A stretch of 62,169 nt of DNA, the filler included, from Barthelona sp. PAP020 (taxonomy: Eukaryota): NCBI GenBank assembly GCA_040182905.1. It is 11 parts of 11 records of this genome, joined end to end, with 100 filler letters (N's around TTAATTAATTAA, not from the genome) between each part and the next. Parts side by side here need not be neighbours in the genome. Positions count along the whole stretch, not along the records: positions 11,425 to 17,187 come from JARQWU010000595.1; positions 17,288 to 22,875 come from JARQWU010000596.1; positions 22,976 to 28,560 come from JARQWU010000597.1; 8 more parts are not named here. The stretch is one strand, 5' to 3'. The position numbers were made by a program, and so were the translations under genes. How positions within the stretch are numbered: position 1 is the first letter of the stretch; the number at the start of each line of letters is the position of its first letter. Shown one piece after another: positions 5,613 through 57,610 of the stretch. Below the pieces are notes generated by a model. The model worked only from the letters and a program-made list of their open reading frames with translations, was not told the DNA's origin and did no database searches.

Positions 5613-5712
5613 NNNNNNNNNNNNNNNNNNNNNNNNNNNNNNNNNNNNNNNNNNNNTTAATTAATTAANNNNNNNNNNNNNNNNNNNNNNNNNNNNNNNN
5701 NNNNNNNNNNNN
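5613..5712. other. Artificial 100-nt contig spacer. Same spacer at 11325-11424, 17188-17287, 22876-22975, 28561-28660, 34192-34291, 39814-39913, 45420-45519, 51014-51113, 56606-56705
   Basis: Identical N-run + TTAATTAATTAA (stops in all six frames) + N-run; genes are cut at these positions. Confidence 0.99.
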
Positions 5713-6047
5713 TTTTCAACAGATCAATCGGGCCTCGAAAGCCTTTAACCAAATAAACACTATTCTTTTTTATTCACTCATACGCACAGTGCTTCTTGGC
5801 TTGGAAATAAAGTCCACTAACGAAATAACTATATTTGTTTACAAAGAATATAAATTTCAGTCAAAATCCCCGGAGGGTTGAGAGACTGAATTATAACTTT
5901 AAAAAATCCAAAATTTTAAAGTTTTAACTATATTTTGAAAAATCAAAATCTTCAATAAATATATGTCGGGCCTTGAAAGTCTTTAACCCAATAAACACTA
6001 ATTTTTCTCATTCATTTATTCACCCAAAGTTTCCTGACCTGAATAAA
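5713..6047 (+). repeat. Dispersed repeat family C: one partial unit plus one diverged tandem unit
   Basis: TTTTCAACAGATCAATCGGGCCTCGAAAGCCTTTAACC...CATACGCACAGTGCTTCTTGGCTTGGAAATAA also occurs near 11635-11731 and 57503-57600; a diverged second unit (TCGGGCCTTGAAAGTCTTTAACC) lies near 5967. Confidence 0.9.
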
Positions 6048-6457
6048 AATTTGACTTTGTTAATCTTCCACCAGAAGTAGTTTTTGCCACAATTGAAGGG
6101 AAACAATTTTCAAAATGTTGGTGAAGCATCCCATTGCACCTTATCTAATTTAATCTATGTTTTGTAATTTGGTTGGACTCTTTTATGCAAATTATTGAAG
6201 TAAATACATCATAAACTAAATAATAGAAAAGCAGAAAGAGATTCTTTAGTTTCAAAGATATCCTTTTTTTTTTTTTCACTTTTCTTTTGTTAAGTGTTGA
6301 TTTTTCTTCTTTAGATAAAGTATTTTATGTATCAATATAACAAATTTTGAAATACACATTGAAATGAAGTATGTGTTCAAAAGTTTTTACTCTTTTCCTT
6401 TTTTCCTTCATTTTATTCCTTTATTTTCCATTTTAATCGAATCAAAATTAAAATCTA

Positions 6458-11424: not shown

Positions 11425-11733
11425 CAAGTTGTGAAACAACTATATTTATTTACAAAGAAAAAGTAATCAGAGAAAACTCATTTCATTAAATCTCAGCCAC
11501 AGAAAATGAGTGGCTGCAATTGAATCTTTCTCATCAAGTATTAAATTGTGGAAAAATTTTCCATTCCCATTCTTTTGTATTTTTTGCAAGAGTAAAACTT
11601 TAAAGTTTAAACTTTACCTTGGAAAATCAAAAGTTTTTCAACAGATCAATCGGGCCTCAAAAGCCCTTAACCAAAAAAACACCATTTTTTTTTATTCACT
11701 CATACGCACAGTGTTTCTGGGCTTGGAAATAAC
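11425..11733 (+). repeat. Dispersed repeat family C
   Basis: Aligns with 57150-57601 and 5713-5810; starts at the contig edge. Confidence 0.9.
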
Positions 11734-11935
11734 TAAACAATTTGACCTCTAAATTCATCCATTTACGTTGTTCTTTCTTTTTCATAAAAAAGAAAAGGTA
11801 AAGCATTTTTGAAATTGAAACATTAAAAAGAATATTTTTTCCCTTTTCATTAATTCTCTCATCATAAAAAAGTGCATTATCTATTGAATATAACAACAGC
11901 TTGAAGATTTACCGTTTTTTCTAAAAAAATGAAAT

Positions 11936-12338
11936 GAGGGTTGTTCACAAGCCTATTATTTTTGGCGAATCGAAATTTTCCGATTCTTCCTTTTTCCCTC
12001 GAGGTACGGAACTTTTCCTTAACCTAACCCCAAATTTTTGACCTGCCACGGTGAATACATGAAAACTTGCACAATTAGGATAAATTTTTAAAAATATCGG
12101 AGCTTTAAGCTCTTTTGAGCAATTAGTAATGCAATATTTCACACTCTGCATAGGGCATAGCTCTCCTACGAAAGCCTATGAAAGAGTAGGTCTCAAAAAA
12201 GAGAGGTTCCTTTCAGGAACGCTGGACGTTCTCGAAAAGAAGAAAGATTAAGGTATATTATTTATTAGTCAACTAAGTTTTCCCAGTCTCTAATTTGGGA
12301 AAGTTCTGGAAAAGGTTCGTTCAAAAAGAAAAATAAAA
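11936..12338 (-). mobile_element. Repeat A, ~400 bp non-coding element (putative SINE/MITE-like or structured RNA)
   Basis: Full-length reverse-complement match to 20992-21389; its ~110-bp terminus is shared with 15781-15887 and 28058-28165. Confidence 0.7.
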
Positions 12339-12648
12339 CATCGTAATCTCAATGGAAAGAACACAAACATCAATTCTACATAATAATGCAGAGAAAATGG
12401 CCTTAATTCAACACCATAACCCCTTAATCACCCGTATAGGTTGTATAGCTCATAGTTTAGTGAATACTGAAAGAAATTGCAGTTCAATCATATCTAAAAC
12501 CAAAACTGCACGCAATGAATATTTGTCAACATCGTTCATTGACATGAAGTGAATATTTGCAATTTGAATTTTTGGAGAAATTTTGAAAATTTCTAGTTTA
12601 TCTCCAATTTCAATTTTTCATTTATTTCTTTTTTTTTGTTAGTTTATT

Positions 12649-14807
12649 GTGTCTGTTGAATCAAGTAGTGAAATTGGAGAATTTACACGAGGTTTATTTC
12701 CTCTAAATATTGATGAAAATAGTGGAGGTGAAATTGCAAATGTGATTTCTAATTATTTGTGGGACATTAAATACTTGCCAAATGGTAAACAATTGGTTGT
12801 TGGTACTTATCAAGCTGTCTATGTTATTGATTTAGCAACTGGAATATTGAATCGTACATTGAAAGAGCATACACAGCATGTTTATGGTATTGCCATTTCA
12901 CCAAATGGGCAGAAGTTGGCAACATGTTCCAACGATAGGTTTATCATTGTATACAGCCTTCCAGATTTCTCCATCTTGTGTAGATTGAATGGTAGAACTC
13001 ATATTTATGGAATTTGTTTTTCTTCTTGTTCAAATTATGTATACTCTGGTGATTACAATGGAGATCTTACGAAATATGACACAAATAATGGGAGTATTGT
13101 CTTGGAAAAGAGAATTCAGAATAATTGGAGTTGGAGAGTGAAACTATCAACGAATGGTAAATATCTTTTGACCGGAGGTGGTGATGGTATTGCCAAGTTG
13201 GTTGACCCAGATGATTTATCGGTTGTTCGTACATTCAGTCAAGGTTACCAAATTAGAGCTATTGATTTCCACCCAACTGAAAGAATGATTGCTGTTGGTG
13301 ATCGTTTAAGAAAAGTTAAACTCTGGAACATGGACAACGGATCACTCATTCATACATTTGACATGGGTGGTGAAGTATGGTGTCTTCATTTCTTATCACC
13401 TTATATCCTGCTTATTATGTCTGGTGATGGCTATATTACCTCATTTCATGTTGAAACCTATCAGCGAATTCAAAAGGTACATTGTGGTTGTGACTCTACC
13501 GATTTTTCCTTTGCTATATCCCCAGACAAGACACAAATAGCGTGTGGAAGAAGAAGATCCAACAACACAATAAAATTATTCAAAATCATTCCTGACATCT
13601 CAGATCTAGTTGATGTTGATGTCCTGAAAACCCACAAATCAGACCTAATTGACCTCTCATGGTAGTGTTATATCATATTTACTCACGAATTATCAATTAA
13701 AACACACTGATACTATCATTGTTGAGCTTTTGTCATCAGGAATGTGTCTTTCAGCAGAAGAAGTCAATGAATTTACACAAGGTGACATGGATATTGTTCT
13801 AAATAATGCAGCTAACAGTAGAAATATGCGCCAATTTATCTCACCTGAACTTTTACTCCAATGTTTCATTGAACACAATGAAACACATCTCAAAAAGCAG
13901 ATGAATTTGCTTGCAAGCATTTAAACTTGCTTCCATAAAATCAAAAACCGAAAAGCCTGCTAATTTTAACAAAGATGTTCCTTGCCTGTGCCAAATCCCT
14001 ATTTGATACACAAGAAGGAGACCTTTTGTCCATGAACTTGTTGATTATTCAAAAAATGCTCAAAATGTTGTTTCATCTGTGATTTCAACCTCCAACCAGC
14101 AAGAAGCTTGTGGCACTGTTCTATTATTATTAAAATGTGGGCTTTGGATTTGTTATGATGAGTATGTTTTGATAAAACACATTTTGGATGATGTAATATG
14201 TGAGATAAGCTTCAAGAATGGTGGAAACATCAGGCAAATTCAATTTCCTCACTTTTATTTGTTTTTTACACTTGACGGATTTTCTTTTTCTAATTTGATG
14301 AAATTGACACTAAATAGACACCCTGAAGTACTCAGTAACTTATTTGATTTCATGGTTGAACATAAAAATCTGTTGTCTCAAACTGAAATGTCAGAACTAT
14401 GCGACTTTTCAGAAGCCTATCCGACATTTACTGGGCTTCTGTTTGAAAAAATTGTTCCACACTTGTCTGAAATATCTCGATTAATCTTCCCTGAACTTTT
14501 GCCTAAACATGTAATTTTTGAATTTCCAGCAATTGTAAAACCGTTTTCTCAAAAGATTGAAATGATTTCTGATTTAAAAGAGGAAAATAACCAACAGGAC
14601 GTTTTAATTGGCAACCTCTCAACACAACTTGAACGAGTTACGTCCGTTGTTGCTTTGCTCGTTCAAAACCAATCAAAAAACGTGAACACCCAAAGTCTGT
14701 AAATCGATTAGCTAAATTAGGAGCCATTCGAAGACAACATTGTTGAAGAACTTAAGACCCAACTTAAGGCTACCCTATCCTGGGCTAATCAACAGAATTC
14801 AAGTTAA
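12649..14807 (+). pseudogene. Variable WD40 family copy 1, with two C-terminal helical modules and a coiled coil; disrupted
   Basis: Near-identical to 16202 and 27730 up to nt 13551. Start is GTG where the paralogs have ATG. Frameshift near 13660, and further stops split ORFs 13649-13924 and 14079-14702. Confidence 0.8.
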
Positions 14808-14899
14808 AATCACTTGGGCTCAAACCCAGATCTGTTAATCGTGACAACTTTGATGAATTCATTGACCTTTCTATCAAAATGTATATCTCCAAATATCAA

Positions 14900-15887
14900 T
14901 CGATCACTGAAACAATGAGAAGTGTTTTTTTGGAATTCTCTGTTTTGGCCACAGATTTAGCAGTATGTAGTTTTGAGGATCTGATGGCTTTATGCGTGCT
15001 GTAAATTGTTTTTTTGTCACTAATTTCTTTTTCATCAGCAGAAGGCGATTTCCAAGGTTATAACTTTTCATTTTATAAAGGGTCATAATTCTTTCATTTG
15101 CTAATGCATTATCTCAAGTGCATTTAGATAGGACTTGAACAAGAGTGAACTGTCTTTTGTTGTGTTTGAAAGAATACTTTTATGTCTGTTTTCAACAGAA
15201 GATCAAGGGGTCAATATCTGATGCCAAAGCAGAGGGTGTGCTTGACTTATAGGGAGACACTCTTTGCAGCCACATGTTGAAGAATGTTGAGACTCTCTTT
15301 TTTGGTTTTCTTAAATTTGATACCAGTTATGAGCTCCTGAACCCACTCTTCATCAGTCTAATACCATTTTTTTGACCGTTTCTTTGAACAGCAATACCCA
15401 TCCTATTCTTTCTACTTCAGCAAAGAATCTTATACTTTCATTCCCTACTGCCCCATAATCTTCTTCTTCACCAATTGTGTTTATCAGTTAGACCCAACAA
15501 CCATTGAGCGCGAGATCTTCATCTATTTGTAACGCATCTTCTGGGAATTATTTTTGGAAGTTAGCCACATACAACGCTATTATGAGGATTGATACCGCTT
15601 CATTATAAAGGAGTTTAGCATTAGCATCCTCTTTTTTGATCTCTTTGAATTTGATTCCTGAGAAGAGTTCTTGAACCCACTCTTCATAACTGTAAAAATT
15701 ATTATTGGACAACCCTTGTGGAATGTTTCTTTTCATTGCTGAAACCACTCTGTAACACGTTACCCCTTTAACAAGAACCCCCGAAAAGAATAAAGATTGA
15801 AGTTTATTATTTATTAATCAATTGAGGTTCCCAGTCTCTGATTTGGATAAGCTGTGGAAAAGGTTCGTACAAGAAGAAAAATAAAAA
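14900..15887 (-). mobile_element. Repeat B: terminus shared with repeat A plus a decayed ORF; left boundary uncertain
   Basis: 15384-15887 matches 28058-28560 in reverse complement. The stop-riddled frame contains a duplicated EEWVQEL..GIKFK motif. Confidence 0.55.
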
Positions 15888-16201
15888 GAAATTATCGAAG
15901 TTTATATAAATGTACAATGTTACAAACACCAATTCCACATAATAAACAGAGAAAATAGCCATAATTTAATATCATAACCCCTTACTTACCCGAATAGGTT
16001 GTATAGCTCATAGTTTAGTAAGCATTAAAGAAAGAAGAGTTCAACCAAATCTGAAAACAAAACATCTGCATCCAATGAATATTTGTCAACATCGTTCATT
16101 GACATGAGGTGAATATTTGCAATTTGGATTTTGGAAGATTTTTGAAAATTTCTAGTCAATCGTCAATTTTTATTTTCCATTTATTTTTTTGTTAGTTTAT
16201 T

Positions 16202-17187
16202 ATGTCTGTTGAATCAAGTGGTGAAATAGGAGAATTTATACGTGGTTTATTTCCTCTAAAGATTGATGAAAATAGTGTAGATGAAATTGAAAATGTGATT
16301 TCTAGTTATTCGTGGGACAGTAAATACTTGCCAAATGGTAAACAATTGGTTGTTGGTAGTCATCAAGCTGTTCATGTTATTGATGTAGCAACTGGAATAT
16401 TGAATCGTACATTGAAAGAGCATACAGACAATGTTTATGGTATTGTCATTTCACCAAATGGGCAGAAGTTGGCAACATGTTCCCGTGATAAGTCTATCAT
16501 TGTATACAGCCTTCCAGATTTCTCCATCTTGTGTAGATTGAATGGTGGAGGTTGTATTTGTGGAATTTGTTTTTCTTCTTGTTCAAATTATGTATATTAT
16601 GGTGATACCAATGGAACTCTTACGAAAAGTGACACAAATAATGGGAGAATTGTCTTGGAAAAGAGAATTTCGAATAGATTTATTTGGAGAGTGAAACTAT
16701 CAACGGATGGTAAATATCTTTTGACTGGATGTGGTGATGGTGGAACTGCCAAGTTGGTTGACCCAGATGATTTGTCTGTTGTTCGTACATTCAGTCAAGG
16801 TTGCGGAATTAGAGCTATTGATTTCCACCCAACTGAAAGAATGATTGTTGTTGGTGATGAATCGAAAAAAGTCAAACTCTGGAACATAGACGACGGATCA
16901 CTCATTCATACATTTGATATGGGTGGTCAAGTATGCTGTCTTCATTTCTTATCACCTTATATCCTGCTTATTATGTCTGGTGATGGATATATTACCTCAT
17001 TCAATGTTGAAACTCATCAGCAAATTCAAAAAGTACATTGTGGTTGTAACCCTTTCGGTTTTTCCTTTGCTGTATCCCCTGATAAGACACAAATAGCGTG
17101 TGGAAGATGTGCAGGGAATGTCATCAAAATCTATTCAATTGTCATTGACTATAACCCCTCACATGAGGCGGAACTCATTCGATTGTC
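16202..17187 (+). CDS. Variable WD40 family copy 2, 3' truncated by the contig end
   Basis: ATG start; about 7 WD40 blades (e.g. HTDNVYGIVISPNGQKLATCSRDKSIIVY, AIDFHPTERMIVVGDESKKVKLWN); paralog of 12649 and 27730. Confidence 0.9.
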
Positions 17188-17287
17188 NNNNNNNNNNNNN
17201 NNNNNNNNNNNNNNNNNNNNNNNNNNNNNNNTTAATTAATTAANNNNNNNNNNNNNNNNNNNNNNNNNNNNNNNNNNNNNNNNNNNN

Positions 17288-18123
17288 ATAGGAACATCAA
17301 ATTTAACGAGTGGTAATAGGTTATCCGCAATTTCATGAATTTTAGGAACGATTGCAGGTTCAAAAGCACCTTGAACGGGTAATATATGAGGCTTTTTTGG
17401 TGGAACAGATTGACAAGCTGATCTTGACTCTAAGAAGGTTTCAATATCACCCAATAAATATAGCTCAAGATGGTCTTCAAATATATCAGTTTCTATTTCA
17501 GCAGACTGATTGGAAAGTGCTGAAATGGCGGGTAAACTGCTTGGCAACGATATAATGTCAATCTCTAACCCATCAGAATGCTCAACCAACGATTCTTTAG
17601 GTATCGTGATATAGCAAAAACCATAGGATTTTAATTGATCATACAGGGTTTCCTCAGATTGTGAAGGTAATAACCAAGGAGGAACAAAAGAGTCTTCTAC
17701 AATGGGATTAAAGCATAATCCACTTTCTTTTTTACCAAAATTTTCTGACAATTCAATATCTAACAAAGAATCATCTTCATCATCTGACATAACGGATGAT
17801 AATTCCAAAGCACTGGCAAGCTCATCAAATAAAGCCGTTTTTTGTATACGATTTAAACTAACAAAAGCATCACCAGGCATACAATCAACTGATGAATAAT
17901 CATCAACCACTTTTTCAACTTTTAAATATAATTTTGACTGATGTTTTCGAAATTTGGTTTCAAATTCTGAGTTTAAGTTTTGTTCCATTGAAATTGAATG
18001 GATCAAATGCTTTTCTTTTGAACATTTTTCACAAATATATTCCTTACAATCGTTACAATAATACGTTAAGTTTTCTCCATGCTCCGAACAAAGTTCAACC
18101 GATAAATTGGACTGAAGGTCCAT
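17288..18123 (-). CDS. B-box zinc-finger protein, 3' truncated
   Basis: CSEH...YYCNDCKEYICEKC...KHLIH B-box pattern directly after the ATG at 18123. Confidence 0.8.
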
Positions 18124-18361
18124 AAAAAAAATAACAGTATTTTTATTGGAAAAATTATAAACAAATGAGATAAAAAATAAATCTAACCTCAAATGATAAG
18201 TTGTACAAACATAAATAAAACAAATAAACAACAATAAAAAAAAAAATTAAAATATGAGGTTATTAATTCAACTTTTTTGTTGGGGTCGGATTTTTTTTTA
18301 TTTATTTAACAGAGAAATTTTAGAATGAATTATTAATTCAATCTTTAAAATCAAAAAAAAA

Positions 18362-20962
18362 ATGGGAACAACAACGTCTAAATTACGAGCAATATTTGAC
18401 AACTTAGATTGTGATAAAGATGGATATTTGAGATTATCTCATCTTGAAAAGGGGCATGAACAACTTAGAGAATTAGGAATCAGTTTTAAAAGATGGAATT
18501 CTTTGGGAACTTTTTATACATTTGATAAAGGAAAAGATGGAAAACTATCTTTTGAAGAATTTTGTGATTTAATTGGTTCCTTAAGACGTATAGAATGGAC
18601 TGCGAAGAATAAAAGAAGAAGAAAATTGTTTGGAATTATTCCTTTACCTTTATGCTGTGGTTTAAGAGAATTGAACACTGAACATGGTGAAAAAAAAGAA
18701 AACGGACAATGTCTAAGCCTTCCAAATGGAGAAATTTTTTCTGTTCTTGAAGAATTCCCAATCGATCAAGCGGTAACAGTTACATTACAAGGAACTAATC
18801 GTGGTGATGGTACTTTTACGCATGTTAACAATAATTTATTTGAATCTTTTCGTAGTTTCAGTTCTGAACAAGTCCATGAATTTTGGGATCGAATCCAATT
18901 AAATATGAAGGAAGAAGGTCGTGAATGTTGGTTAAAATGGTTATTTACCGTTATTGTTGAAGATAGTGAAAGAATAGATGTTTCCAAGCTTACCTTGTTA
19001 ATCAAGGCTTTGCATGCTGATGGTGTTGAAGCAGAAACTTTGTTGTCTGACAGTGATAATGAGATGGAAAATGGAAAGCTTCATAGCCCTACCTCAATAA
19101 CTGAACGAGTATTAGCTCAGTATGATCTGGATGAAACAGGAGATCTTAATTACTCTGAATTTGTGGAATTAGCCATGGATATCATGCGTGAAATTTATTT
19201 GTATCAAGAAAGGGCATTTCAGCATCGAAATTTTCGAAACTATACTTTGTACAAGACTTTAGGCACTGGTAGTATGGGTATAGTTAAGCAAGCGAGGAAT
19301 GATACAACTGGAGAATATGTCGCATTGAAAATGTGTCGCATTACGTCAGATGCTGTGCATGATAAATTGATGAGTGAGATTGAAACGTTAGAAAAGCTTA
19401 GAAATTGTAAGCATTGTGTCAAGTTGTACGAGTATTTTATGGAAGGAGATATGATGGTTATCGTTGAGGAATTATGCGATGGAGGTGATTTGCATGAACT
19501 GTTGTTTCAATTACCCGAAAACACTAATTTTATCAAATATTACTTTAAACAGCTTTGTTTGGGGGTCAAAGAACTCCACGACAAAAATATTTGTCATCGT
19601 GATATTCGTCTTGAGAACATTTTGCTGGATGCTGAAGGAACAATCAAGTTAACAGACTTTGGCTCAGCTAGGGAATTCAAAAAAGGTTGGGATATGTTCA
19701 ACACGTATATGGTTGGTGGTTTATACCATCTAAGTCCCGAACAATTAGAACAAAAGATATATTCAGGAACAAAAACAGACATATGGTCTTTGGGCATTGT
19801 GCTTTATTGCCTTGTTTTTCGTAAACGACCATTCTTTAATGCACATATTCCAACCATGCTTGAACATATGAAAAGTGCTGATTGGTATGTTGAAGATAAG
19901 GTAGTTGATCCTGAAGCATTATCGCTACTTGGAAAATTGCTTGTGAAGGATCCAGATGAAAGGTTAACGATAAATGAGATCTTGGAAGACCCTTTCATCA
20001 AAGAATTTGATCTCTCCAAGTTTAATCCTGTTTTAGCTATTGCATCATTGTGGTTAGGTGCATTACCTTTGGCTTTAGATATGGGTGATATGAATTTAAA
20101 ATTCTCAGATGTGTTTTTGAAGAGGCAAAATAGTGTCTATAGTCAAACATCCACTATCAACTCCATTGTCAATTCTGAACAAAATCATTTATTTGAACAT
20201 TCTTTATCTATCATTGACGAAAACAATTCTAACTACAACATTTCCAGAAGCGCTTCGCCCTTTAAGAGCGAAGAGTGTATCAGTGATACTTCAAAATTAG
20301 ACATTCGAAGTTCTTCCATTCCTCCTGTTGACAGACCAGACAATGATTCTCAGGAACTTTTAAATGAAGAATTCCTTCAGAATACCCCATTAAGTATCAA
20401 TCAGTCCGTTCATGATTTGAATATTAAAGATACTGTTTGTTATATCAAAGAAAGAGATGTCGAAGTTGATATCTGTTTAGATCCGAATGAAGTGATTGAA
20501 ACTCATAAATATTTAATTCAAGCTATAATGAGGATTATGAACAAATATAGTTTTATTCTGGAGTGTGATGAAGCATATTCATGTGATGAGCCAGCTGTTA
20601 CTCTTAATCCTATTCAATGTGCAGGACAAACATTTGAAATTCCCGCTGTAGATTCGTCTTTTTTATTCAAATGTGATAGCATGCGTGTTTTAATTGAGTT
20701 AAAGTATGACGCGGTAAAGATGAGTGAAATGATGGAAACTCTTGATTTATTATCTACAAAAGCTGAAAAATTGAGTCAATCACCTGTTACCACATTTTGT
20801 CCTCGATCAAAACCACATCATTTTTATTTGTTTTCTATTTTTCAATATTATGTGGGATGGAGAATGAACTTTCAATTGATTGGTGGAAATTTGAGAGAGT
20901 TTCATCATCAATATGTTCGTATTGTTCGAAAATTACAGAAACTTTTGCCAACGGATTATTAA
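18362..20962 (+). CDS. N-myristoylated EF-hand + CAMK-group Ser/Thr kinase with KA1-like C-terminus
   Basis: MGTTTS; EF loops DCDKDGYL, DKGKDGKLSFEE, DLDETGDLNYSE; kinase motifs GTGSMG, VALK, HRDIRLEN, DFG, DIWSLG. Confidence 0.9.
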   Translation: MGTTTSKLRAIFDNLDCDKDGYLRLSHLEKGHEQLRELGISFKRWNSLGTFYTFDKGKDGKLSFEEFCDLIGSLRRIEWTAKNKRRRKLFGIIPLPLCCGLRELNTEHGEKKENGQCLSLPNGEIFSVLEEFPIDQAVTVTLQGTNRGDGTFTHVNNNLFESFRSFSSEQVHEFWDRIQLNMKEEGRECWLKWLFTVIVEDSERIDVSKLTLLIKALHADGVEAETLLSDSDNEMENGKLHSPTSITERVLAQYDLDETGDLNYSEFVELAMDIMREIYLYQERAFQHRNFRNYTLYKTLGTGSMGIVKQARNDTTGEYVALKMCRITSDAVHDKLMSEIETLEKLRNCKHCVKLYEYFMEGDMMVIVEELCDGGDLHELLFQLPENTNFIKYYFKQLCLGVKELHDKNICHRDIRLENILLDAEGTIKLTDFGSAREFKKGWDMFNTYMVGGLYHLSPEQLEQKIYSGTKTDIWSLGIVLYCLVFRKRPFFNAHIPTMLEHMKSADWYVEDKVVDPEALSLLGKLLVKDPDERLTINEILEDPFIKEFDLSKFNPVLAIASLWLGALPLALDMGDMNLKFSDVFLKRQNSVYSQTSTINSIVNSEQNHLFEHSLSIIDENNSNYNISRSASPFKSEECISDTSKLDIRSSSIPPVDRPDNDSQELLNEEFLQNTPLSINQSVHDLNIKDTVCYIKERDVEVDICLDPNEVIETHKYLIQAIMRIMNKYSFILECDEAYSCDEPAVTLNPIQCAGQTFEIPAVDSSFLFKCDSMRVLIELKYDAVKMSEMMETLDLLSTKAEKLSQSPVTTFCPRSKPHHFYLFSIFQYYVGWRMNFQLIGGNLREFHHQYVRIVRKLQKLLPTDY

Positions 20963-20991
20963 AATTTGTAAATATTTTCGGAAAATTTTGA

Positions 20992-21389
20992 TTTGTTTTT
21001 CTTCTTGTACGAACCTTTTCCAGAACTTACCCAAATCAGAGACTGGAATCTCAGTTTATTGATAAACAATAAACCTTAATCTTTATTCTTTTCGGAGGAT
21101 CCAGCGTTCCTGAAAGGAGCCTCTCTTTTTTGAGACCTACTCTTTCATAGGCTTTCGTAGGAGAGCTACGCTCTATGCGGGGTATGAAATATTGCATTAC
21201 TAATTGCTCAAAAGAGCTTAACGTTCCGATATTTTAAAAAGAATTATCCTAATTGTGTAATTTTTCATGCATTCACCGTGGCAGATCAAAAATTTGGGGG
21301 TAAGTTAAGGAAAAGTTCCGTACCTCGAGGTAAAAAGAAAAATCGGAAAATTTCTATCAGCCAAAAAGAATAGCTTCTAAACAACACTC
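20992..21389 (+). mobile_element. Repeat A, second full copy, followed by a T-run
   Basis: Reverse-complement match to 11936-12338; flanks differ between copies; T13 at 21390-21402. Confidence 0.7.
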
Positions 21390-21540
21390 TTTTTTTTTTT
21401 TTCTTCTTTTTGACAATCTGAAGGTAAAAATGATAAATGATCGGGTTTTCCTTATACCATAAAGCAAAATTGGTGAAAATATTGTTAGCACAAGAAGAAT
21501 TGTAAATATGCGCAAATGAAGGGAAGACTGTTGATGTCAT

Positions 21541-21652
21541 GGTAAACGGCGGGGTAACTATGATTCTTTTAAGGTAGCCAAATGCCTCGTCACCTAATTA
21601 GTGGCGCGCATGAATGGATTAACGAGGTTCCTACTGTCCCTATCTACTATCT
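21541..21652 (+). rRNA. Isolated 112-bp LSU (28S) rDNA fragment, non-functional
   Basis: GGTAAACGGCGGG-GTAACTATGA...TTAAGGTAGCCAAATGCCTCGTCA...GCGCATGAATGGATTAACGAG...ACTGTCCCTATCTACTATCT is the conserved helix 69-71 region; both flanks are non-rRNA. Confidence 0.92.
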
Positions 21653-22975
21653 CAATTATTTGTGGCAAAAGAATTTTATTGAAAGAATATATTTCTGTAC
21701 TAATCTGTAAACAAGAAATTTTGTTTTGAGAAAGAATAAAAATTGCTACTTTTTGCTGCATCACATATGATTGTAGCAAAGATCTTACATTTACTTATTT
21801 TTAACCGAATTTTCATTAAATTTTGTTAATTTGCTTTGAAATAATTTTTTAACAAAACTGAGAAAAGACGAGAAAAGAGGTTAATATTAATTTTGATCAC
21901 CTTTTTCACTTCTTTCTTTGAGCTATGAAAGTGGTGTGTTTTAAATCGATGGAATCCTAAAACGTCAATAATAAATTGGTTTTGTGTTAATTTATTCAAG
22001 TTAGAGACTGGACAACATACCTAATCTCAGAAACTGTCAATGTGAAGAAAATTGAAGATGCAATTCCACAAAGTATCAATCCTATTTGAGACTGTGTTTC
22101 CAACTACTCAATATTGTAATATAAAATGAAAGGAAAAAGGAAACACAATGAACAAAAAGAAGATGTGATATGATAGGTGGACTTTTTGACAAACACAAAA
22201 AAGAAGGTTTTGGCTTAAGTTTTGAATCACTTGATTACAAATACAACCAAAGAAATATTTACACTGAAAAATGTGCAAACATGCACTGAAACAAAGAGTT
22301 TCACCAAAAATATTTAATAATCGAACAAACATCTCTACAAAACACAATTATCATTTTCTACTATCACATTCATGGTGTTTAAATCAATGCTAAATGCAAA
22401 GTTGTCCATATAAACTCGAAAGAAAAAATCCTAACAAAGAATTGACCCACTCATAGAAAAAAATATCTCACAGATGCCTAATCATTCATTTCATCTCATT
22501 TCAACAATTGGTGCTCCAAAACATCGACGGATTGTTTTTGGAAAAATATTCAAAAAGAATGAAAAGATCAAATTCATTTTTAGCTTTTTTAAATTCCTTT
22601 TTTTTTGCAGACGATGGTTGTTAACACTGATGTTCCATTCTTTAAAAAGACAATTGAACGGAAGGAAAAAGAAAAGGATATAATTTTTGTTGCAAACTGG
22701 CGATCAAAAGGCAAAAATCGTATACCCAATCTAGAATCATACACAAAGATCATTAATTCACTGAAACCCACCGAAATTCGTGGATCCAGCTTCAAAATAA
22801 TTGATCCCCATTTTGCAACAGGCGCATTTGGATTCTTATGCACAGCTGAAAGATATGGGATTGTTGTCATAATCANNNNNNNNNNNNNNNNNNNNNNNNN
22901 NNNNNNNNNNNNNNNNNNNTTAATTAATTAANNNNNNNNNNNNNNNNNNNNNNNNNNNNNNNNNNNNNNNNNNNN

Positions 22976-23354
22976 TCCAGTGGTGATTTTTATTATTTGT
23001 TGACGTTTTTCTAATGCTTGAGTTCCAGTAACAAAAACGCTATTTTCAAGCTTTGTTGCAGCTTCAATAATCTTTTCAACCTTTGCATCGGATATTCCTT
23101 TAACGTTAGCTAAGTCTTTTCTGGTATGCATAATTATCGATCGAACAGTATGAAATCCTGCAGAAGTCAACTTCTTTACATCTGTTGCAGAAATACCTAA
23201 TGTAGTTAAAGCTTCAATTGGTTGAACATCATCTTCTTCAAGCTGTTCTTCATATTGAGTTTCATCTTCTGATTCTTCAGCATATTCCACTTCACTACAT
23301 TGATTAGTTACATTACAAATGAAAACAAAACTGTCTTTTAACACTTTTTGACAT
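22976..23354 (-). CDS. DMC1: Meiotic recombinase DMC1 (RAD51 family), 5' fragment; probable intron 23295-23331
   Basis: GISATDVKKL..AG..T...IMHTRKDLANVKGISDAKVEKIIEAA...FVTG...KITTG. MHT and FVTG favour DMC1 over RAD51. A 37-nt GT...CTAATCAATGTAG intron links the frame to ATG 23354. Confidence 0.8.
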
Positions 23355-23539
23355 GTTGCAAATAAAAAGAAAAGAAATAAAAAATGCAGGGATAATTTTC
23401 TTTCTTTCTTTTTTTTAAAAGCATTTGCAAATCAAAGTAACAAAATTGAATTGACACAAAAAGCTTTAAATATGCATGTTAAATAAAGATATTAAACAAA
23501 AATGTCGAAAATTTACAAAAAATAATAAAATATTTAAAA

Positions 23540-25540
23540 TTAACTGTTATTGTTGATAGAATTTTCTTCAAATTCTTCACGAATAGGCGCAGGAGCAAAA
23601 GGAGCAATCGAAATATCTTCAGTAACAGGAATGTTTGCATAATCTTCGACTTCTTCAATACTATATTCTTTGGTATTTTTATCAACCAGTAACTTGTATT
23701 TATGATACTTAACAGCTGTAGATCTGTGAGCAACGCTAATCAAAGTTATGCCTTTTCTGCAAGACATAGTATATAATTTGGTTTCAAGTGGTTCATCCAA
23801 AGAAGCCGTGGACTCATCAAGAATAGCATAACTAGGGTGATGGAAAAACATTCTGGCAAAACCAAGACGTTGCTGCTCACCAAGAGATAACATATCTTCC
23901 CAAACTTGAACAGAATCCAAGCCACCACCTCTGGAAGGAAGATCACCAAGATCAACTGCCTCCAACGCCTCCAATAATTGAGAATCGTGATGTTTTATTT
24001 CGTAGGACGTATACGGATAACATAACTGATCTCTAAGAGTACCAATAACAATGTAAGGACGTTGAGGAATAAAGAAAACTCCTTTTCTACCACAACTTCC
24101 TGGCCTATAGACTTTACCACCACATTCATCCCATAAACCAGCAACTGCACGTAAAATCGATGATTTTCCACAACCAGAAGGACCTTGAATAACTGTGGAA
24201 TTACCTCTTGATAAGTCGATTTTTAGATTATTGATCAAACGTCTACCTTGTGGTGTACTTACAGTAATCCCATCAACAACCATCTTGGGTGAATCAATGT
24301 ATATGGTAGCCTTGCTATCCTCATCCGACTCAGAAGGATCCTCAAAAACACCTTGTTTCATTCCTGATAACCCCATTTCACCACGATCCAACGTTTCAAG
24401 ATATTCCATAAGTTCAGCGACACGAGTAGTTGAACCCATTACAACAGAGATATCCTGACCAAATGAAAGAATGGCGGAAAGTGCTGTCAGCAATTGGGTA
24501 ATCAATTGAATCATGGAATTAACGTCAGCCATGTCCATTTCATTTTTCATGACAAAAACGTTTACAATCGGGATAATAAATGCTATAATATTAGAAAATT
24601 GACCAATAAATAAGTTAGCAAAGTTCAAAGGAACATTCAATCTTGCTAATTCGCTGAAATTATCAACAACTTCTTTTAATCGATCTTCAACAATCATGTG
24701 TTCTCTCGATTCACCCTTATAGAAAGCAACCGACTCCGCATACGTTCTAACTCGAACATGAGCAAAACGAAAATCTCCTTCAACCTGATTCTGACGATAA
24801 TTCACCTTGACAACTGGAGACATCAATTGACTATTCAAGAAAACACCAATCAAAAACCAAACAACAGCAATAGCCAAAGAAACAAAAGAACTTTCTTGAA
24901 CAATCTTGTAGGATACCATAGCAATGGTAATGATGTTAAAGAAAATGCCATCTCGGTTCACATTACCAAAAATGCAATCGCAAAAATTCTGTGTCGCTGT
25001 TGTGACATCAGTTGTCAAACGTTGATCAGGATTATCCAAGGTATAGCTACCGTTCTGTAAGATATAATATGATTTGTTGGCAAAATAAAAAGAATGAAGC
25101 TTTGTAACTAATTTCCTTCTCCAAGTGATATAGAATTTTTGAGATAAATAATTAATAATTGTTTGCAAAGTAGTATAACATAAACAATAAATAAGACCAA
25201 GAACAACTCCTTTTAACACAATTGGTTGATCAACAGTGGTAAAACCAACAACAAAAATAATAGTTAATTCATTCGCATTGGAATAAAGCAACGAAACTAA
25301 AACCAATAAGAAAAAAATTGCAATAATATCAAAAGTTCCTTTAGAAAGTAAACGAGGAACTCTTTCCCTAAATAACTTTCCTAAAGCCTTAGTACCACCA
25401 ATATTAATTTGTGTTTCTTCCTCTTCTTCTTCTTCTTCAGCTTCAAAATGTGGTAGTAAATCTACCAAAAAATCAGCCTTTTCAACTAAAGAAGGTTCTG
25501 AATTATGAGGTAATAACAAAGGCTCATCTTCAACTGGCAT
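23540..25540 (-). CDS. ABC transporter subfamily D half-transporter
   Basis: DNPDQR, EGDFRFAHVRVRTYAESVAFY (EAA motif), GPSGCGKSS, FIPQRPY, LSLGEQQRLGFAR, LDESTAS. Confidence 0.93.
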   Translation of the reverse strand: MPVEDEPLLLPHNSEPSLVEKADFLVDLLPHFEAEEEEEEEETQINIGGTKALGKLFRERVPRLLSKGTFDIIAIFFLLVLVSLLYSNANELTIIFVVGFTTVDQPIVLKGVVLGLIYCLCYTTLQTIINYLSQKFYITWRRKLVTKLHSFYFANKSYYILQNGSYTLDNPDQRLTTDVTTATQNFCDCIFGNVNRDGIFFNIITIAMVSYKIVQESSFVSLAIAVVWFLIGVFLNSQLMSPVVKVNYRQNQVEGDFRFAHVRVRTYAESVAFYKGESREHMIVEDRLKEVVDNFSELARLNVPLNFANLFIGQFSNIIAFIIPIVNVFVMKNEMDMADVNSMIQLITQLLTALSAILSFGQDISVVMGSTTRVAELMEYLETLDRGEMGLSGMKQGVFEDPSESDEDSKATIYIDSPKMVVDGITVSTPQGRRLINNLKIDLSRGNSTVIQGPSGCGKSSILRAVAGLWDECGGKVYRPGSCGRKGVFFIPQRPYIVIGTLRDQLCYPYTSYEIKHHDSQLLEALEAVDLGDLPSRGGGLDSVQVWEDMLSLGEQQRLGFARMFFHHPSYAILDESTASLDEPLETKLYTMSCRKGITLISVAHRSTAVKYHKYKLLVDKNTKEYSIEEVEDYANIPVTEDISIAPFAPAPIREEFEENSINNNS

Positions 25541-26560
25541 TATTATAATGTCAAAAATGAAAAAAAAAAGTCTTTGAAGATTTTTTGAAATTTTAATGTT
25601 GCCTTTTATTTAACATTTGATATAACATATGTTTGGAAATCAATCAAATTATGTTTTACATCTTATTTCTTTGAAAATTTATTTTCCATCTTTCATTTTC
25701 CAAACACTTTGCAATTCATTTTGATAAAATCAAAGAATCTAAACAATTTTGAAACAACTAAAAAATCAAAAATAAATATATAACAGTGTTATTATTGTGA
25801 AAAGAAAAATACTTGTTTGTTAATTTAAAAAAGGGATGTTGAATCAAGCAAATTTAACTTTTGCATCTTTTATTTGTATCACTGAAGTGAATTACATTGA
25901 AAAAAGAATGTAAAAAAATAGAAAATATTGAAGATTTTACAAATAACCCTGTTCCCTTTCCGACAAAATGAACAACTCAAACAAAAATGTATTAGTTGAT
26001 GCTATTCAAGGCACATCCTTACCAATAAAAAAGAAAACAACACACACCAAAGAAAAGGACAGCTAAGGATTTATTGAGAAATTAGCTTTCATATTGGAAT
26101 ATTCACAAAAATAGACAAAGAAAGGTTAACATGAACAATGAACTAAATTCAAAAATAAATTATAAACAACTGGATTGAAGAACTGGATTTCAACTTCAAA
26201 TTTGGAAAATCTCAAATAACCTTGTGAAGAAAGGCAAAAAAAGATAGCACAATAATATGCACAGCAAATAAAGCCAATAGATCCAGAAAGTGGCATACAG
26301 CCAACCAAAGAAAAAAATCTGTTTCTCATGTCCAATCATCAATCAAAATTAGACAGACCTTGTGATGGAAACGAAAACTGTTGGATTTGAACTCGAATTA
26401 AAGAACAATAAAAAAAAAACCAAGGAACATCTGCCAAATGAAAATGAAAATGAACCAAATAATTGTTCAAAACAGAAAATTCTCAGTGCATCCCCAAAAT
26501 GATGTTTTGGATCATTTTTCCAACTAATCAATCATCAACTTCATCACTTTCATAATCACT

Positions 26561-27730
26561 TTATTCATTGAAAAATGAGTGCATATTTCCACCCTTCATT
26601 TCATTAATGTCAGATAAATCCCAACATGTGTCAACAATCATGCTATACTCCACTTCATTCATGTATATCCCTGCGGCTACCAATTGTCTTATGAGTTGAG
26701 TATCAATATTCAAAGCCATAAGATTCGACAACACATAGCCACCATCCCTTGACAATCGAATGAGTTCTGCCTCATGTGAAGGGTCATAGTCAATGACAAT
26801 TGAATAGATTTTGATGACATTCCCTGCACATTTTCCACACGCTATTTGTGTCTTATCAGGGGATATAGCAAAGGAAAAATGGGAAGAGTCACAACCACAA
26901 TGCACCTTTTGAATTTGCTGATAAGTTTCAACATTAAATGAAGTAATATAACCATCACCAGACATAATAAGCAGGATATAGGGTGATAAGAAATGAAGAC
27001 AGTATACTTGACCACCCATATCAAATGTATGAATGAGTGATCCGTCGTCCATGTTCCAGAGTTTGACTTTGTTTGAACGATCACCAATAGCAATCATTCT
27101 TTCAGTTGGGTGGAAATCAATAGCTCTAATTTCGCCACCTTGACTGAATGTACGAACAACAAACAAATTATCTGGGTCAACCAACTTGACAATATCACCA
27201 CCTCCAGTCAAAAGATATTTACCATCCGTTGAAAGTTTCACACTCCAAACCCCATTATTCTGAATACTTTTTTCTAAGACAATTCTCCCATTATTTATGT
27301 CATCTTTCGTAAGAGTTCCATTGTAATCACTATAATATACATAATTTGAACAAGAAGAAAAACAAATTCCATAAATAAAAGTTCCACCATTCAATCTACA
27401 CAAGATAGAGAAATCTGGAAGGCTGTATACAATGATAGACATATCACCAGAACATGTTGCCAACTTCTGCCCATTTGGTGAAATGGCAATACCAAAAACA
27501 GAGCTTGTATGGTCTTTCAATGTACGATTCAATATTCCAGTTGCTACATCAATAACATAAACAGCTGCACGACTACTAACAACCAATTGTTTACCATTTG
27601 GCAAGTACTTACTGTCAAAGAAATAATCAGAAATCACATTTGCAATTTCAACTTCACTATTTTCATCAATCTTTGGAGGAAATAAACCACGTATAAACTC
27701 TCCTATTTCACCACTTAATTCAACAGACAT
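26561..27730 (-). CDS. Variable WD40 family copy 3, complete: propeller plus ~65-aa C-terminal module
   Basis: ATG 27730 (MSVELSGEIGEF) aligns with the paralog starts; the ORF is uninterrupted. Confidence 0.9.
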   Translation of the reverse strand: MSVELSGEIGEFIRGLFPPKIDENSEVEIANVISDYFFDSKYLPNGKQLVVSSRAAVYVIDVATGILNRTLKDHTSSVFGIAISPNGQKLATCSGDMSIIVYSLPDFSILCRLNGGTFIYGICFSSCSNYVYYSDYNGTLTKDDINNGRIVLEKSIQNNGVWSVKLSTDGKYLLTGGGDIVKLVDPDNLFVVRTFSQGGEIRAIDFHPTERMIAIGDRSNKVKLWNMDDGSLIHTFDMGGQVYCLHFLSPYILLIMSGDGYITSFNVETYQQIQKVHCGCDSSHFSFAISPDKTQIACGKCAGNVIKIYSIVIDYDPSHEAELIRLSRDGGYVLSNLMALNIDTQLIRQLVAAGIYMNEVEYSMIVDTCWDLSDINEMKGGNMHSFFNE

Positions 27731-28057
27731 AATAAACAAACAAAAAAAAAAGAAATGAAATGGAAAAAACACTGAAATTGGGGATTAACTGGAAAATTTC
27801 AAGATTTTTCCAAAATTCAAATTGCAAATATTCACCTTATGTCAATGAACGATGTTGACAAATATTCATTGGGTGCAGTTGTTTTGTTTTCAGATTTGGT
27901 TGAACTCTTCTTTCTTTAATTCTTACTAAACTATGAGCTATACAATCTATTCGGGAGATTAAGGGGTTATGATATTAAATTATGGCTATTTTCTCTGTTT
28001 ATTATGTGGAATTGGTGTTTGTAACATTAAGCATTTATATAGACTTCGATAATTTCT

Positions 28058-28560
28058 TTTTATTTTTCTTCTTCTACGAACCTTTTCCACAGCTTATCCA
28101 AATCAGAGACTGGGAACCTCAATTGATTAATAAATAATAAACTTCAATCTTTATTCTTTTTCGGGGGTTCTTGTTAAAGGAGTAACGTGTTACAGAGTGG
28201 TTTCAGCAATGAAAAGAAACATTCCACAAGGGTTGTTTAACAATAATTTTTGCCGTTATGAAGAGTGGGTTCAAGAACTCTTCTCAGGAATCAAATTCAA
28301 AGAGATCAAAAAAGAGGATGCTAATGCTAAACTCCTTTATAATGAAGCTGTATCAATTTTCATAATAGCGTTGTATGTGGCTAACTTCCAAAGATAACCC
28401 CAGAAGATGCGTTACACACAGATGAAGATCTCACACTCAATGGTTGTTGTGTCTGACTGATAAACACAATTGGTAAAGAAGAAGATTATGGTACAGTAGG
28501 GTATGAAAGTATATTATTCTTTGCTGAAGTAGAAAGAATAGGACAGGTATTGCTGTTCAA
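28058..28560 (+). mobile_element. Repeat B, second copy, cut by the contig end
   Basis: Reverse-complement match to 15384-15887, including the decayed MKRNIPQG... frame. Confidence 0.6.
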
Positions 28561-28660: not shown

Positions 28661-30391
28661 GCTGATGTTTGGTCATTTGGTGTAATGTTGGCTCAGGTCA
28701 TTTCTGGGTTTGTTCCATTTGATGGGTTGACTGAGTTTCAAATTGCTGTTAAATTGAGTAGGGGACAACTTCCGTATAGCAAGGAATTGTTGGACACAAT
28801 ACCTGGGTTTGGAATTATTAAGAGGTGTTTGGCTGTTGAGGCAGATGCTAGGCCAACGTTTAGCGAGATCACTGAGTATTTACAGATGCTGATTGAGCGT
28901 TTCGAGGGGTTAGGATTCGACGAGAAGAGGTTGGTGAAGGAGAATGCTGTGTTGAAAGAGGAAAATAAGATTTATGAGGAAAGGGTTCAGAGTTTAACAA
29001 GGAAGGTTGATGAGTTAAATGAGGAAAGAAATGAATGCATGAATGAAAAAAAAAAATTAATCCATGAAAATGGTCAGTTGAAAGAAGAAACAGAGAAATT
29101 GACAAGTCACAACCAAGAATTAATTAATCAAATGGCCAATTTTATGGAAGAAAAAAAAAACTGGATGAATAAAAACCAAGAATTAGTCAATAAAGTGAAC
29201 AAGCATATGGAAGAAAAAAGAACCTGGATGAATGAAAAGCAAGAATTAACAAATCAAGTCCATCATTTGACAAACCAATTGAATGAACTTATGAATAACA
29301 ATGATAGAAAACAATCAGTTGAAAATAGAAAGCAAGTTGTTTCAACCTGTTTAACCAACCAATTGAATGAGCTTTTGGATAACAATAATCAAGATCAACA
29401 CAGTAAAAATAGAAATCAAGTTATTCGTACAGTCGAAAGGTTTGAAGAAAGTCCTGCTTTTAATGAGGAATTTCCTAATAAATTTGTTCATGCCCTTGAT
29501 TACAGCCCTGATGGACGGTTTTTTGCGGTTGCTGGATACGGCAACAAATTACTCAGAGTCTTCAACGCTGAAACACATGAAATTATGCATGAAGGCCAGT
29601 ATGTAAACACTATTGGTCTCAATTTCAGTCCCAACTCCAAATTATTGGCTGTTGGTGGTAGTTTTGGTGATAGTACAGCAATTCATATCATTGAGGTTGA
29701 TACATGGAGAACATTAAGAGTAATTAGGCCTAAAGCAAGGAATGTAATGGGCGTGTGGTTTTCACATGATGGCATTCCAGCGAATGTATTGAATTTGTGG
29801 TTCTCACCAGATGGAAAACTGCTTTATTTTGGTATGGAGTTTGGTTACATCGCCATATACACTGTCGAAGGACAGAAGTTGCATGAATCTCGAGCTCATG
29901 AAAAAATTGTTCAATCTGTACGTATCAGCCCCGACATGAAGTACTTTGCATCTGTCAGCAATGATAAATGTTCAAAGTTATTTTCATTAGAGACGTATGA
30001 AGAGCTTCACACGTGGAGTCATGACAGAAAGAGTGTCGGCTCAGGCAACTTCTCACCTGATAGTGCTATTTGGGCAACAGGTGATGACAGTGGTACAGTC
30101 AGGATATTTAATGTTGAATCCAGAGAGTTGATGGGAAAGTGGAAGGTTCATAACAACAGCATATACTCAATTATCTTCTCCCAAGATGGTTCACTGATCT
30201 ATTCTGGTTCTACTGATAAATCTTTTGCTGTGATTCGAAGAGAAACTGGTCAAGTGTTGCAGAAAGTGGATGTATCTTTTGGGATTTATATTATGGCCCT
30301 CAGCCATGATGGAACTCGTTTGTTATGCAGTGGAAAAAAAAGCAACAGAGAAAATGTCCCAATCCAAGAATTCATTGCTTCAGACCTGTAA
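28661..30391 (+). CDS. Protein kinase (C-lobe only visible) + coiled coil + WD40 propeller; 5' truncated
   Basis: Frame open from the contig start: ADVWSFGVML...PF...IIKRCL....ARPTF (subdomains IX-XI), then heptad repeats, then YSPDG/FSPDG/ISPD/FSQDG blades. Confidence 0.9.
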   Translation, partial: ADVWSFGVMLAQVISGFVPFDGLTEFQIAVKLSRGQLPYSKELLDTIPGFGIIKRCLAVEADARPTFSEITEYLQMLIERFEGLGFDEKRLVKENAVLKEENKIYEERVQSLTRKVDELNEERNECMNEKKKLIHENGQLKEETEKLTSHNQELINQMANFMEEKKNWMNKNQELVNKVNKHMEEKRTWMNEKQELTNQVHHLTNQLNELMNNNDRKQSVENRKQVVSTCLTNQLNELLDNNNQDQHSKNRNQVIRTVERFEESPAFNEEFPNKFVHALDYSPDGRFFAVAGYGNKLLRVFNAETHEIMHEGQYVNTIGLNFSPNSKLLAVGGSFGDSTAIHIIEVDTWRTLRVIRPKARNVMGVWFSHDGIPANVLNLWFSPDGKLLYFGMEFGYIAIYTVEGQKLHESRAHEKIVQSVRISPDMKYFASVSNDKCSKLFSLETYEELHTWSHDRKSVGSGNFSPDSAIWATGDDSGTVRIFNVESRELMGKWKVHNNSIYSIIFSQDGSLIYSGSTDKSFAVIRRETGQVLQKVDVSFGIYIMALSHDGTRLLCSGKKSNRENVPIQEFIASDL

Positions 30392-45340: not shown

Positions 45341-45409
45341 GCCGGTATAGCCTAATTGGATAGGGTATTAGACTTCTAATCTGAGGATTCTGGGTTCGAG
45401 TCCCAGTAC
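45341..45409 (+). tRNA. tRNA-Arg(TCT), 3' acceptor strand truncated at the contig end
   Basis: D arm GCCT/GGGT, anticodon arm TTAGA-CTTCTAA-TCTGA, T arm CTGGG-TTCGAGT-CCCAG; only 3 acceptor pairs remain before a fold-back. Confidence 0.85.
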
Positions 45410-56925: not shown

Positions 56926-57012
56926 TCCGGACTACCAGAGTTGAACTGGTGACCCTCTGATGGCTGTAAAGCCTACTACAGTCAGATGCTCTGCCAACTG
57001 AGCTAAGTCCGG
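56926..57012 (-). tRNA. tRNA-Tyr(GTA) with a 14-nt intron (56962-56975)
   Basis: Acceptor CCGGACT/AGTCCGG, D arm GCTC/GAGC, anticodon stem TCTGA/TCAGA, intron at 37/38, T arm ACCAG-TTCAACT-CTGGT, oligo-T Pol III terminator. Confidence 0.97.
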
Positions 57013-57149
57013 GTTGTAAAATTTAATAATTCATGTAAGGTCTCAATTTTTGAAACTTTGAATTAGATTAAAAGAAAACAAGATACTTCAGTTTTAAGAA
57101 CTGTTTAATTATATTAAAAGAAATTTATTTAATCTTTTGGTTCAATTAT

Positions 57150-57601: not shown

Positions 57602-57610
57602 AAAATATGA

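Follow-up and report, generated by a model that had tools for sequence, protein, structure and literature searches.

A transposon-like terminus upstream of three variable WD40 genes in Barthelona sp. PAP020, probably inherited within one duplicated block

The terminus and its loci

A repeat terminus of ~110 bp, here called T, lies upstream of three WD40 genes in a 62,169-nucleotide stretch of DNA (the window) from the metamonad protist Barthelona sp. PAP020 (GenBank assembly GCA_040182905.1). The window is comprised of 11 contigs, each of ~5.5 kb, which are joined via ten artificial linkers of 100 nt (an N run, a 12-nt spacer, and a second N run), the first located at 5613-5712 and followed by nine others; distances measured across a linker are meaningless. 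A single contig holds copies 1 and 2 of the terminus and its WD40 gene, and copy 3 and the kinase-side copy 4 are located on two other contigs. The genes of the window are eukaryotic and intron-poor, and seven of the 14 window proteins that were looked up match entries of the protein collection letter for letter. The features with which this study is concerned are as follows, where A denotes the part of the whole element other than T, and B denotes an unrelated repeat.

11923..12345, no strand assigned: whole element A+T, copy 1, likely a non-autonomous DNA transposon; ~420 bp, non-coding, each end having A/T runs
11968..12035, no strand assigned: inverted repeat on the inner side (core 12004-12018), lying within the element at ~45-80 bp from its A end
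12233..12345, + strand: T copy 1, which holds the terminal inverted repeat (core 12308-12320)
12346..12648, + strand: spacer of WD40 copy 1, likely its promoter; 86.5% identical to that of copy 2 over 12366-12648
12649..13665, + strand: WD40 copy 1, likely a chimeric pseudogene; GTG in place of the ATG of the other copies, loss of homology to copies 2 and 3 at ~13551, and a frame break at ~13665
15295..15780, - strand: repeat B, copy 2; likely a decayed open reading frame (ORF) that contains a 334-bp internal repeat and points away from T
15781..15900, + strand: T copy 2, element end only
16202..17187, + strand: WD40 copy 2, an open frame cut by the contig end
18362..20962, + strand: EF-hand protein kinase gene, the stop of which lies just outside the end of element copy 4
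20976..21402, reverse orientation, no strand assigned: whole element A+T, copy 4, with no WD40 gene
26528..27730, - strand: WD40 copy 3, a predicted 7-blade propeller followed by a helical tail; its TAA (26561-26563) precedes the next stop by 11 codons
28045..28165, - strand: T copy 3, element end only
28166..28560, + strand: repeat B, copy 3, cut by the contig end; 371 identities and 25 mismatches relative to copy 2

The T motif was found at exactly four sites in the window (12284-12317 and 15832-15865 on the + strand, 21012-21045 and 28079-28112 on the - strand), a number reached in 0 of 100 shuffles (mean 0.00), and T is single rather than tandem at each locus. Three of these sites lie beside WD40 genes, with distances of 310, 314, and 327 bp from the end of T to the start codon, whereas the fourth ends 29 bp past the stop codon of the kinase gene and has no WD40 gene beside it. 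Beyond T, copy 1 continues as repeat A and copies 2 and 3 continue as repeat B, as seen in the alignments, and copy 4 also continues into A. An earlier sequence-only reading of the window had described a ~110-bp terminus upstream of all three WD40 genes at a distance of ~310 bp, the divergence of the copies beyond it, and a fourth terminus adjoining the 3′-end of the kinase gene, and each of these observations is borne out here. Its view of the terminus as a real element boundary also stands, given that the whole element is present at an unrelated locus and is equipped with inverted repeats. On the other hand, its statement that every variable WD40 gene lies near T is true of three genes out of three, but these all belong to one subclade, and three other WD40-like ORFs in the window (at 28685, 35494, and 59320) are not accompanied by T. 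The first of these, at 28685-30391 (+), is 21-31% identical to the family, and the contig start cuts off its upstream DNA.

The dispersed element and the duplicated block

The two whole copies of the element are 88% identical over 419 nt (11923-12340 versus 21402-20989), and their homology stops on both sides, where 263 and 173 of 500 shuffles were as good in the flank tests. Within the A end there is an inverted copy with which the T end can pair, the score being 53.5 in copy 4 (0 of 1000 shuffles) and 33 in copy 1 (28 of 1000 shuffles). These inverted repeats are asymmetric, in that one reaches the T end and the other remains ~45-80 bp inside the A end, and the longest identical run between them is 9 nt. 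TA borders five of the six inverted-repeat cores, the ends of the element are T-rich, and copy 1 contains an 8-bp stem at ~11967-11986, ~45-60 bp from the end, the hairpin being decayed in copy 4. A+T is a dispersed element of ~420 bp, likely a non-autonomous DNA transposon. Copies of miniature inverted-repeat transposable elements (MITEs) of the Tc1/mariner type are homologous only up to their terminal inverted repeats, which are flanked by TA; the present element departs from a simple MITE of this kind, because copies 1 and 4 stay alike beyond the TA-bordered cores, at 67 of 79 nt outside the left core and 14 of 17 nt outside the right core. As to other identities of A, that of a decayed rRNA is unsupported in copy 1, which has no rRNA match, and homology to another dispersed repeat of the window (repeat C, described below) was rejected. 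The copy 1 element has no Rfam match with E<0.4, and searches of metagenome contigs and of viral contigs with the T pattern each returned 0 matches.

Homology between B and A was likewise ruled out (377 and 50 of 500 shuffles as good), and neither B nor the rest of the window yielded a partner inverted repeat for T. B matches no Pfam family at E<0.1, and no homolog of its 77-aa stop-free part was accepted among 1.84 billion representatives, three matches having been discarded as low-complexity repeat proteins. Microhomology at the junction is weak (21 of 500 shuffles). Because B resembles a decayed ORF, shows no relation to A, and lacks a partner inverted repeat, the T of copies 2 and 3 is best interpreted as the end of a truncated element.

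T, the spacer, and the gene fall within a single uninterrupted BLAST alignment of copies 1 and 2 (12233-13551 versus 15782-17107, 87% over 1336 nt); copies 1 and 3 are also 87% identical over 1336 nt, and copies 2 and 3 are 91% identical over 1817 nt, a stretch that includes B and reaches both contig ends. Between copies 1 and 2, identity amounts to 88 of 105 positions in T, 237 of 274 in the spacer, and ~90% in the coding region, with no difference in conservation between T and the spacer (Fisher p=0.51). The T of copy 1 is not nearer to that of copy 2 than to that of copy 4 (17/107 versus 14/105 differences, p=0.70), and T divergence among copies 1, 2, and 4 is 12-16%, as in flanks. In a quick tree comprising the three window genes and 21 other rows of the family, the three WD40 genes form one clade with a support of 100 and have branches of 0.11-0.15, compared with 0.45-1.35 for the other rows. 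The constant distance between T and the gene can thus be ascribed to inheritance of the block by shared descent, and the three cases are not independent but likely represent one T-gene junction and one B-T junction, each of which was inherited. Most older members of the family probably lack T, because the element copies are about as young as the three-gene clade. The linkage to the repeat is therefore probably ordinary in itself, being a single junction that was copied. An origin in one segmental duplication, which would speak against the sequence-only interpretation, is largely borne out by the single block, the single young clade, and a T that is not more conserved than the spacer. There are also signs of exchange, which concern T of copies 2 and 3 and the following features downstream of copy 1.

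13658..14237 (13658-13843 and 14031-14237), + strand: two remote copies of the C-terminal helical domain of the family, likely remains of an old paralog
14870..15180, + strand: decayed patch remotely like the DNA downstream of copy 3 (DNA score 66, where none of 352 other tiles of the window exceeds 47.5; protein score 59, 0 of 60 shuffles)

Past ~13551, copy 1 continues in register into a remote family tail. Against the tail profile, the two remote tails of copy 1 reach E-values of 3e-5 and 1e-5 (12.6 and 14.0 bits), compared with 119 bits for copy 3; the first of them is 22-40% identical to 24 family tails, whereas the tail of copy 3 is 49-70% identical to 23 of the 24 and 32% identical to the remaining one. 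The loci of copies 1 and 3 are likely old paralogs with a younger block, from T to the propeller, in common, because the tail of copy 1 is remote and the DNA downstream of both copies is remotely alike. The ORF at 14007-14699 gave 0 matches among 989 longer candidates, which is weak evidence.

The T of copies 2 and 3 differs at one of 107 sites, compared with 56 of 710 sites in the non-coding flanks (p=0.0025), and a scan-corrected permutation gives p=0.03 for the longest run and p=0.09 for the best window. Copies 2 and 3 differ at 1 site in T and at 27 in the spacer, and copies 1 and 2 at 17 and 37 sites, respectively; scaled to the distance between copies 1 and 2, the T of copies 2 and 3 is set apart from the spacer (p=0.004) and from synonymous sites (p=0.002). 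Of 19 variable sites in T, 17 are private to copy 1, whereas the coding region is star-like. A recent conversion over T between copies 2 and 3 appears likely from these counts. No crossover pattern was seen inside T in an alignment judged by eye.

A 32-bp inverted-repeat stretch located ~100 bp before the start codon is identical in all three spacers (12513-12544, 16073-16104, and 27840-27871) and is a candidate promoter element. An isolated piece of large-subunit (LSU) rRNA of ~113 nt is located at 21541-21654 (+) (Rfam LSU, E 4e-14), separated from element copy 4 by ~140 bp on the side of its A end, and spans the R2/I-PpoI target region; its flanks are not rRNA-like, and no such piece lies beside element copy 1. 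An LSU rRNA match at 21328-21649 extends weakly into the end of A. Repeat C, which is dispersed and contains internal direct repeats, is found at 11427-11732, 57146-57603, and 5713-6049, each position being at a contig end or close to one; it is separated from element copy 1 by 190 bp, also adjoins a tRNA gene, and is unrelated to A+T. The tRNA at 56926-57012 (-) is called Thr(tgt) by ARAGORN in bacterial mode and has an enlarged anticodon loop in the Rfam alignment; it is likely a Tyr(GTA) tRNA with an intron. Another tRNA match, at 45345-45409 (+) near a contig end, was given by Rfam only. The 5′-part of a gene with a helix-hairpin-helix domain, which we take to resemble the Rad51/DMC1 recombinase, occupies 22976-23344 (-).

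The WD40 proteins and their variable face

The predicted model is composed of a 7-blade propeller starting at residue 19 and a helical tail, with a mean predicted local distance difference test (pLDDT) score of 90 and a likeness to WDR5 (E 3e-23). The 25 best Pfam rows per WD40 copy hold beta-propeller families only, and no internal DNA repeat is listed for the WD40 genes. The tail comprises ~75 aa, is helical, and is modeled with a pLDDT of 83. No Pfam match to the tail of copy 3 was obtained at E up to 1; in fold searches with the tail, the best match had a Z of 4.2 (root-mean-square deviation 2.4, 51 residues aligned), Foldseek gave no match at E<=0.001, and there was no usable Atlas match. 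A designed PPR protein was considered as a relative of the tail and discarded as one summed weak match. These negative results do not amount to a new fold. The database matches to the WD40 proteins, 54 in number, consist of 27 EukProt relatives at 34-59% identity and 27 generic WD40 proteins, and the four EukProt relatives that were looked up are all labeled Barthelona sp. PAP020. A profile of the WD40 family matched 188 stretches in metagenome contigs, none of which was confirmed. Literature searches found no paper on this WD40 family or on the A+T element, and the term “WD40” is absent from the available portion of the main text of PMC11316075, the supplements of which may bear on the family.

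The overall ratio of nonsynonymous to synonymous substitution rates (dN/dS) among the three copies is 0.8-1.3. Neutral decay is an unlikely cause of this ratio, since ~300 shared codons contain no stop (P(no stop)=0.01), indels there are in-frame only, and sites at which the three copies have three different residues are in excess (19 of 298 versus a neutral mean of 7.6, with 0 of 5000 simulations reaching 19). Within residues 30-299 of the predicted propeller, 17 such three-state sites are distributed very unevenly: 16 fall on the top face (86 positions), none on the bottom (91 positions), and one elsewhere (93 positions), and those on the top face correspond to the d-a and b-c loops. Pairwise counting of the three genes gives top-face dN/dS values of 3.0-3.4, compared with 0.27-0.44 for the remaining positions. 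Among 21 database relatives, entropy is also higher on the top face than on the bottom (2.02 versus 1.48, p=5e-5). On the basis of the model, diversifying selection on the predicted ligand face is likely, as in recognition proteins, and the WD40 proteins are likely cytosolic binding receptors.

An EukProt entry of 145 aa is composed of the last 134 residues of copy 3, Gln at the position of the TAA, and 10 more, mostly acidic, residues. It is likely that copy 3 or a near-identical allele is transcribed and that the TAA of copy 3 (26561-26563, -) is a late nonsense change or allele. A reading of TAA as Gln was rejected, since the kinase protein in the collection has the length set by its TAA stop.

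Origin of the linkage and resemblance to known systems

T is part of one duplicated block, and in our judgment it is fairly probably the end of a transposon that was inserted once upstream of an ancestral WD40 gene, with the block having spread by ectopic recombination or gene conversion and the encoded proteins recognizing changing ligands. Another copy of the element would have been inserted behind the kinase gene. The block of T, spacer, and WD40 gene would have been copied between paralogous loci; one tract may have stopped 110 bp inside the element, joining T to the unrelated B in a junction that copies 2 and 3 then inherited, and another may have ended in register near the last propeller strand, giving rise to the chimera of copy 1 with an old paralog. 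A later short conversion probably re-homogenized the T of copies 2 and 3. T would be mostly a passenger of the block and at times a tract boundary.

Several points weigh against this account. The comparisons rest on three WD40 genes and two whole A+T elements. The word “transposon” is inferred, because no empty site, target-site duplication, or transposase was found, and the core of A is well conserved (176/193) and could be a functional RNA. Just past T, copy 1 and copies 2 and 3 are identical at only 13 of 25 positions, and separate insertions at one site would also fit. Collapse in a short-read assembly would equally give the near-identical T of copies 2 and 3. No mosaic blocks were found in the coding region by runs tests in which same-codon changes were collapsed (P=0.91 and 0.999); an apparent mosaicism (raw runs-test P<1e-4) vanished upon this correction. 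Finally, the top-face dN/dS is based on ~4.5 synonymous changes per pair in pairs that are not independent, and the margins of the top face were fixed after the variable sites were known.

The sequence-only reading had proposed that the terminus mobilizes the WD40 cassette, targets its promoter, or serves as a homology anchor for ectopic recombination. Mobilization by T and repeated targeting of WD40 promoters are hypothetical roles. Exchange itself is supported by the near-identical T of copies 2 and 3 and by the chimera of copy 1 at ~13551, but T seems mostly to have traveled with the block. In a stronger form of the proposal, T would be a standing anchor, and WD40 cassettes would be repeatedly exchanged by conversion from T to the 3′-end of the gene, feeding a diversifying receptor repertoire in the manner of the 70-bp repeats of trypanosomes. 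Such an anchor would account for a block of which one limit is the left edge of T and the other, in copy 1, falls in register within the 3′-part of the gene, for a T of copies 2 and 3 that is younger than the spacer or the synonymous sites, for the contrast between private sites in T and a star-like coding region, and for cargo genes under apparent diversifying selection. It is nevertheless unlikely, given that only one B-T junction and one T-gene junction are present, that T is a single copy rather than an array, that the spacer and the gene already supply 1.2 kb of homology, that the coding region is free of mosaicism, that no crossover signal was seen by eye within T, and that the scan-corrected p-values of 0.03-0.09 are weak. 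It is tempting to speculate further, although we consider it quite improbable, that a co-opted transposon end acts as the 5′ anchor for the exchange of cassettes (T to the last propeller strand) onto old loci with different effector tails, by which a free-living metamonad would diversify a cytosolic WD40 repertoire resembling innate immunity without the NLR architecture.

Alternatively, the element may be a rolling-circle (Helentron/HINE-like) transposon; the WD40 gene would then have been carried along through end bypass or composite transposition, or the element would have inserted repeatedly at one upstream site. According to the available portion of PMC4067079, HINEs have subterminal inverted repeats of 12-15 bp, the first at the 5′-end and the second separated from the 3′-end by 38-60 bp, as well as a short palindrome 8-35 bp from the 3′-end, and such elements are tied to gene duplicates. 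The asymmetric inverted repeats of A+T, with a placement that fits roughly, and its T-rich ends come near this layout, and the poor match between copy 1 and copies 2 and 3 right past T would also be explained. Helentron-type elements insert into TT or T-rich sites; A+T has A/T runs at both of its ends, with no empty site found. However, the longest identical run of the inverted repeats falls short of 12-15 bp, the end hairpin is decayed in copy 4, and no Rep/helicase domain is listed for the 36 window ORFs in the domain scan. Moreover, the 3′ junction of copy 1 is in register with the paralog, which points to homology-guided repair rather than random termination, and we regard the rolling-circle explanation as decidedly improbable. 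Only a slight probability can be given to T being a selected cis element (a promoter, an enhancer, or the start of a structured RNA) common to the WD40 genes, A, and B, with A+T as a non-coding RNA gene. T is nearly invariant in copies 2 and 3, B resembles a decayed ORF that points away from T, the fold of the A+T minus strand is better than those of shuffled sequences (z -3.19), and the LSU rRNA match weakly reaches A, all of which would be consistent with this idea; on the contrary, T has diverged among copies 1, 2, and 4 to the same extent as the flanks, the fold is mainly that of the inverted repeat, with 2 of 103 pairs changed on both sides in the two sequences compared, and copy 1 alone has no match to rRNA or any other Rfam family. 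We give least credence of all to an artefact, in which short reads from a repeat family would have been misassembled and would partly account for both the shared T and the chimera of copy 1. The contigs are short and two of them break inside this repeat, but the three copies differ by ~10% along the gene with indels in-frame only, and the database protein matches the variable residues peculiar to copy 3.

In Drosophila, repeat-associated gene duplication and chimeric genes adjoining DNAREP1/DINE-1 have been reported (available portions of PMC2211543 and PMC4067079). The present locus is similar in its young duplicates, its chimeric copy, and its short non-autonomous element at the edge of a duplicated block, and differs in that only two whole copies are seen, the class of the element is tentative, and the host is a metamonad protist. 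The analogy to variant surface glycoprotein (VSG) cassettes of trypanosomes drawn by the sequence-only reading fails as regards tandem repeats and surface-protein signals. As in VSG cassettes with 70-bp repeats (available portion of PMC4858185), the homology block has a repeat at its 5′ edge, ahead of a variable gene; unlike them, T is a single element end, and 0 of 29 tandem-repeat rows fall in T, A, B, or the spacers. Nor are there signals of a surface antigen, which in VSGs consist of a signal peptide and a GPI or membrane anchor: a hydropathy scan of copy 3 and 14 relatives in 19-residue windows shows no terminal hydrophobic signals (mean hydropathy at most 0.68 at the N-terminus and at most 0.11 at the C-terminus), and most of these proteins have acidic C-termini. 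VSG genes form a silent archive with one active site; here, many family members are found among transcript-derived proteins, and the family has no known expression site. If T were truly a recurrent conversion anchor, the system would constitute a free-living parallel to cassette-based antigen diversification.

Expanded families of F-box and SOCS-box E3 substrate adaptors under positive selection combine a variable binding domain with a conserved small helical domain. The WD40 family shares this layout and its expansion, which is a lead only, in that the tail has no match to these adaptors by Pfam, PDB sequence, or fold; identification of the tail as a SOCS box is unsupported.

The WD40 cargo outweighs the repeat in significance, since a lineage-restricted family with a conserved tail and HNWD-like selection on its predicted ligand face is found in a deep-branching, free-living anaerobe, and the family is a candidate for the recognition of non-self or foreign proteins in metamonads. 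The het-d/het-e genes of Podospora (HNWD/NWD) form a multigene WD40 family with positive selection in the d-a loop and the b-c turn and with exchange between loci (available portion of PMC1805685). The Barthelona genes likewise belong to a multigene WD40 family, with likely selection at the d-a and b-c loops of the top face and exchange between loci. By contrast, no NACHT/NB-ARC or HET domain is present among the Pfam rows, the propeller starting at residue 19; there is one 7-blade propeller, the blades of which are not near-identical, followed by the helical tail of ~75 aa; and the unit of exchange seems to be the promoter together with the whole propeller.

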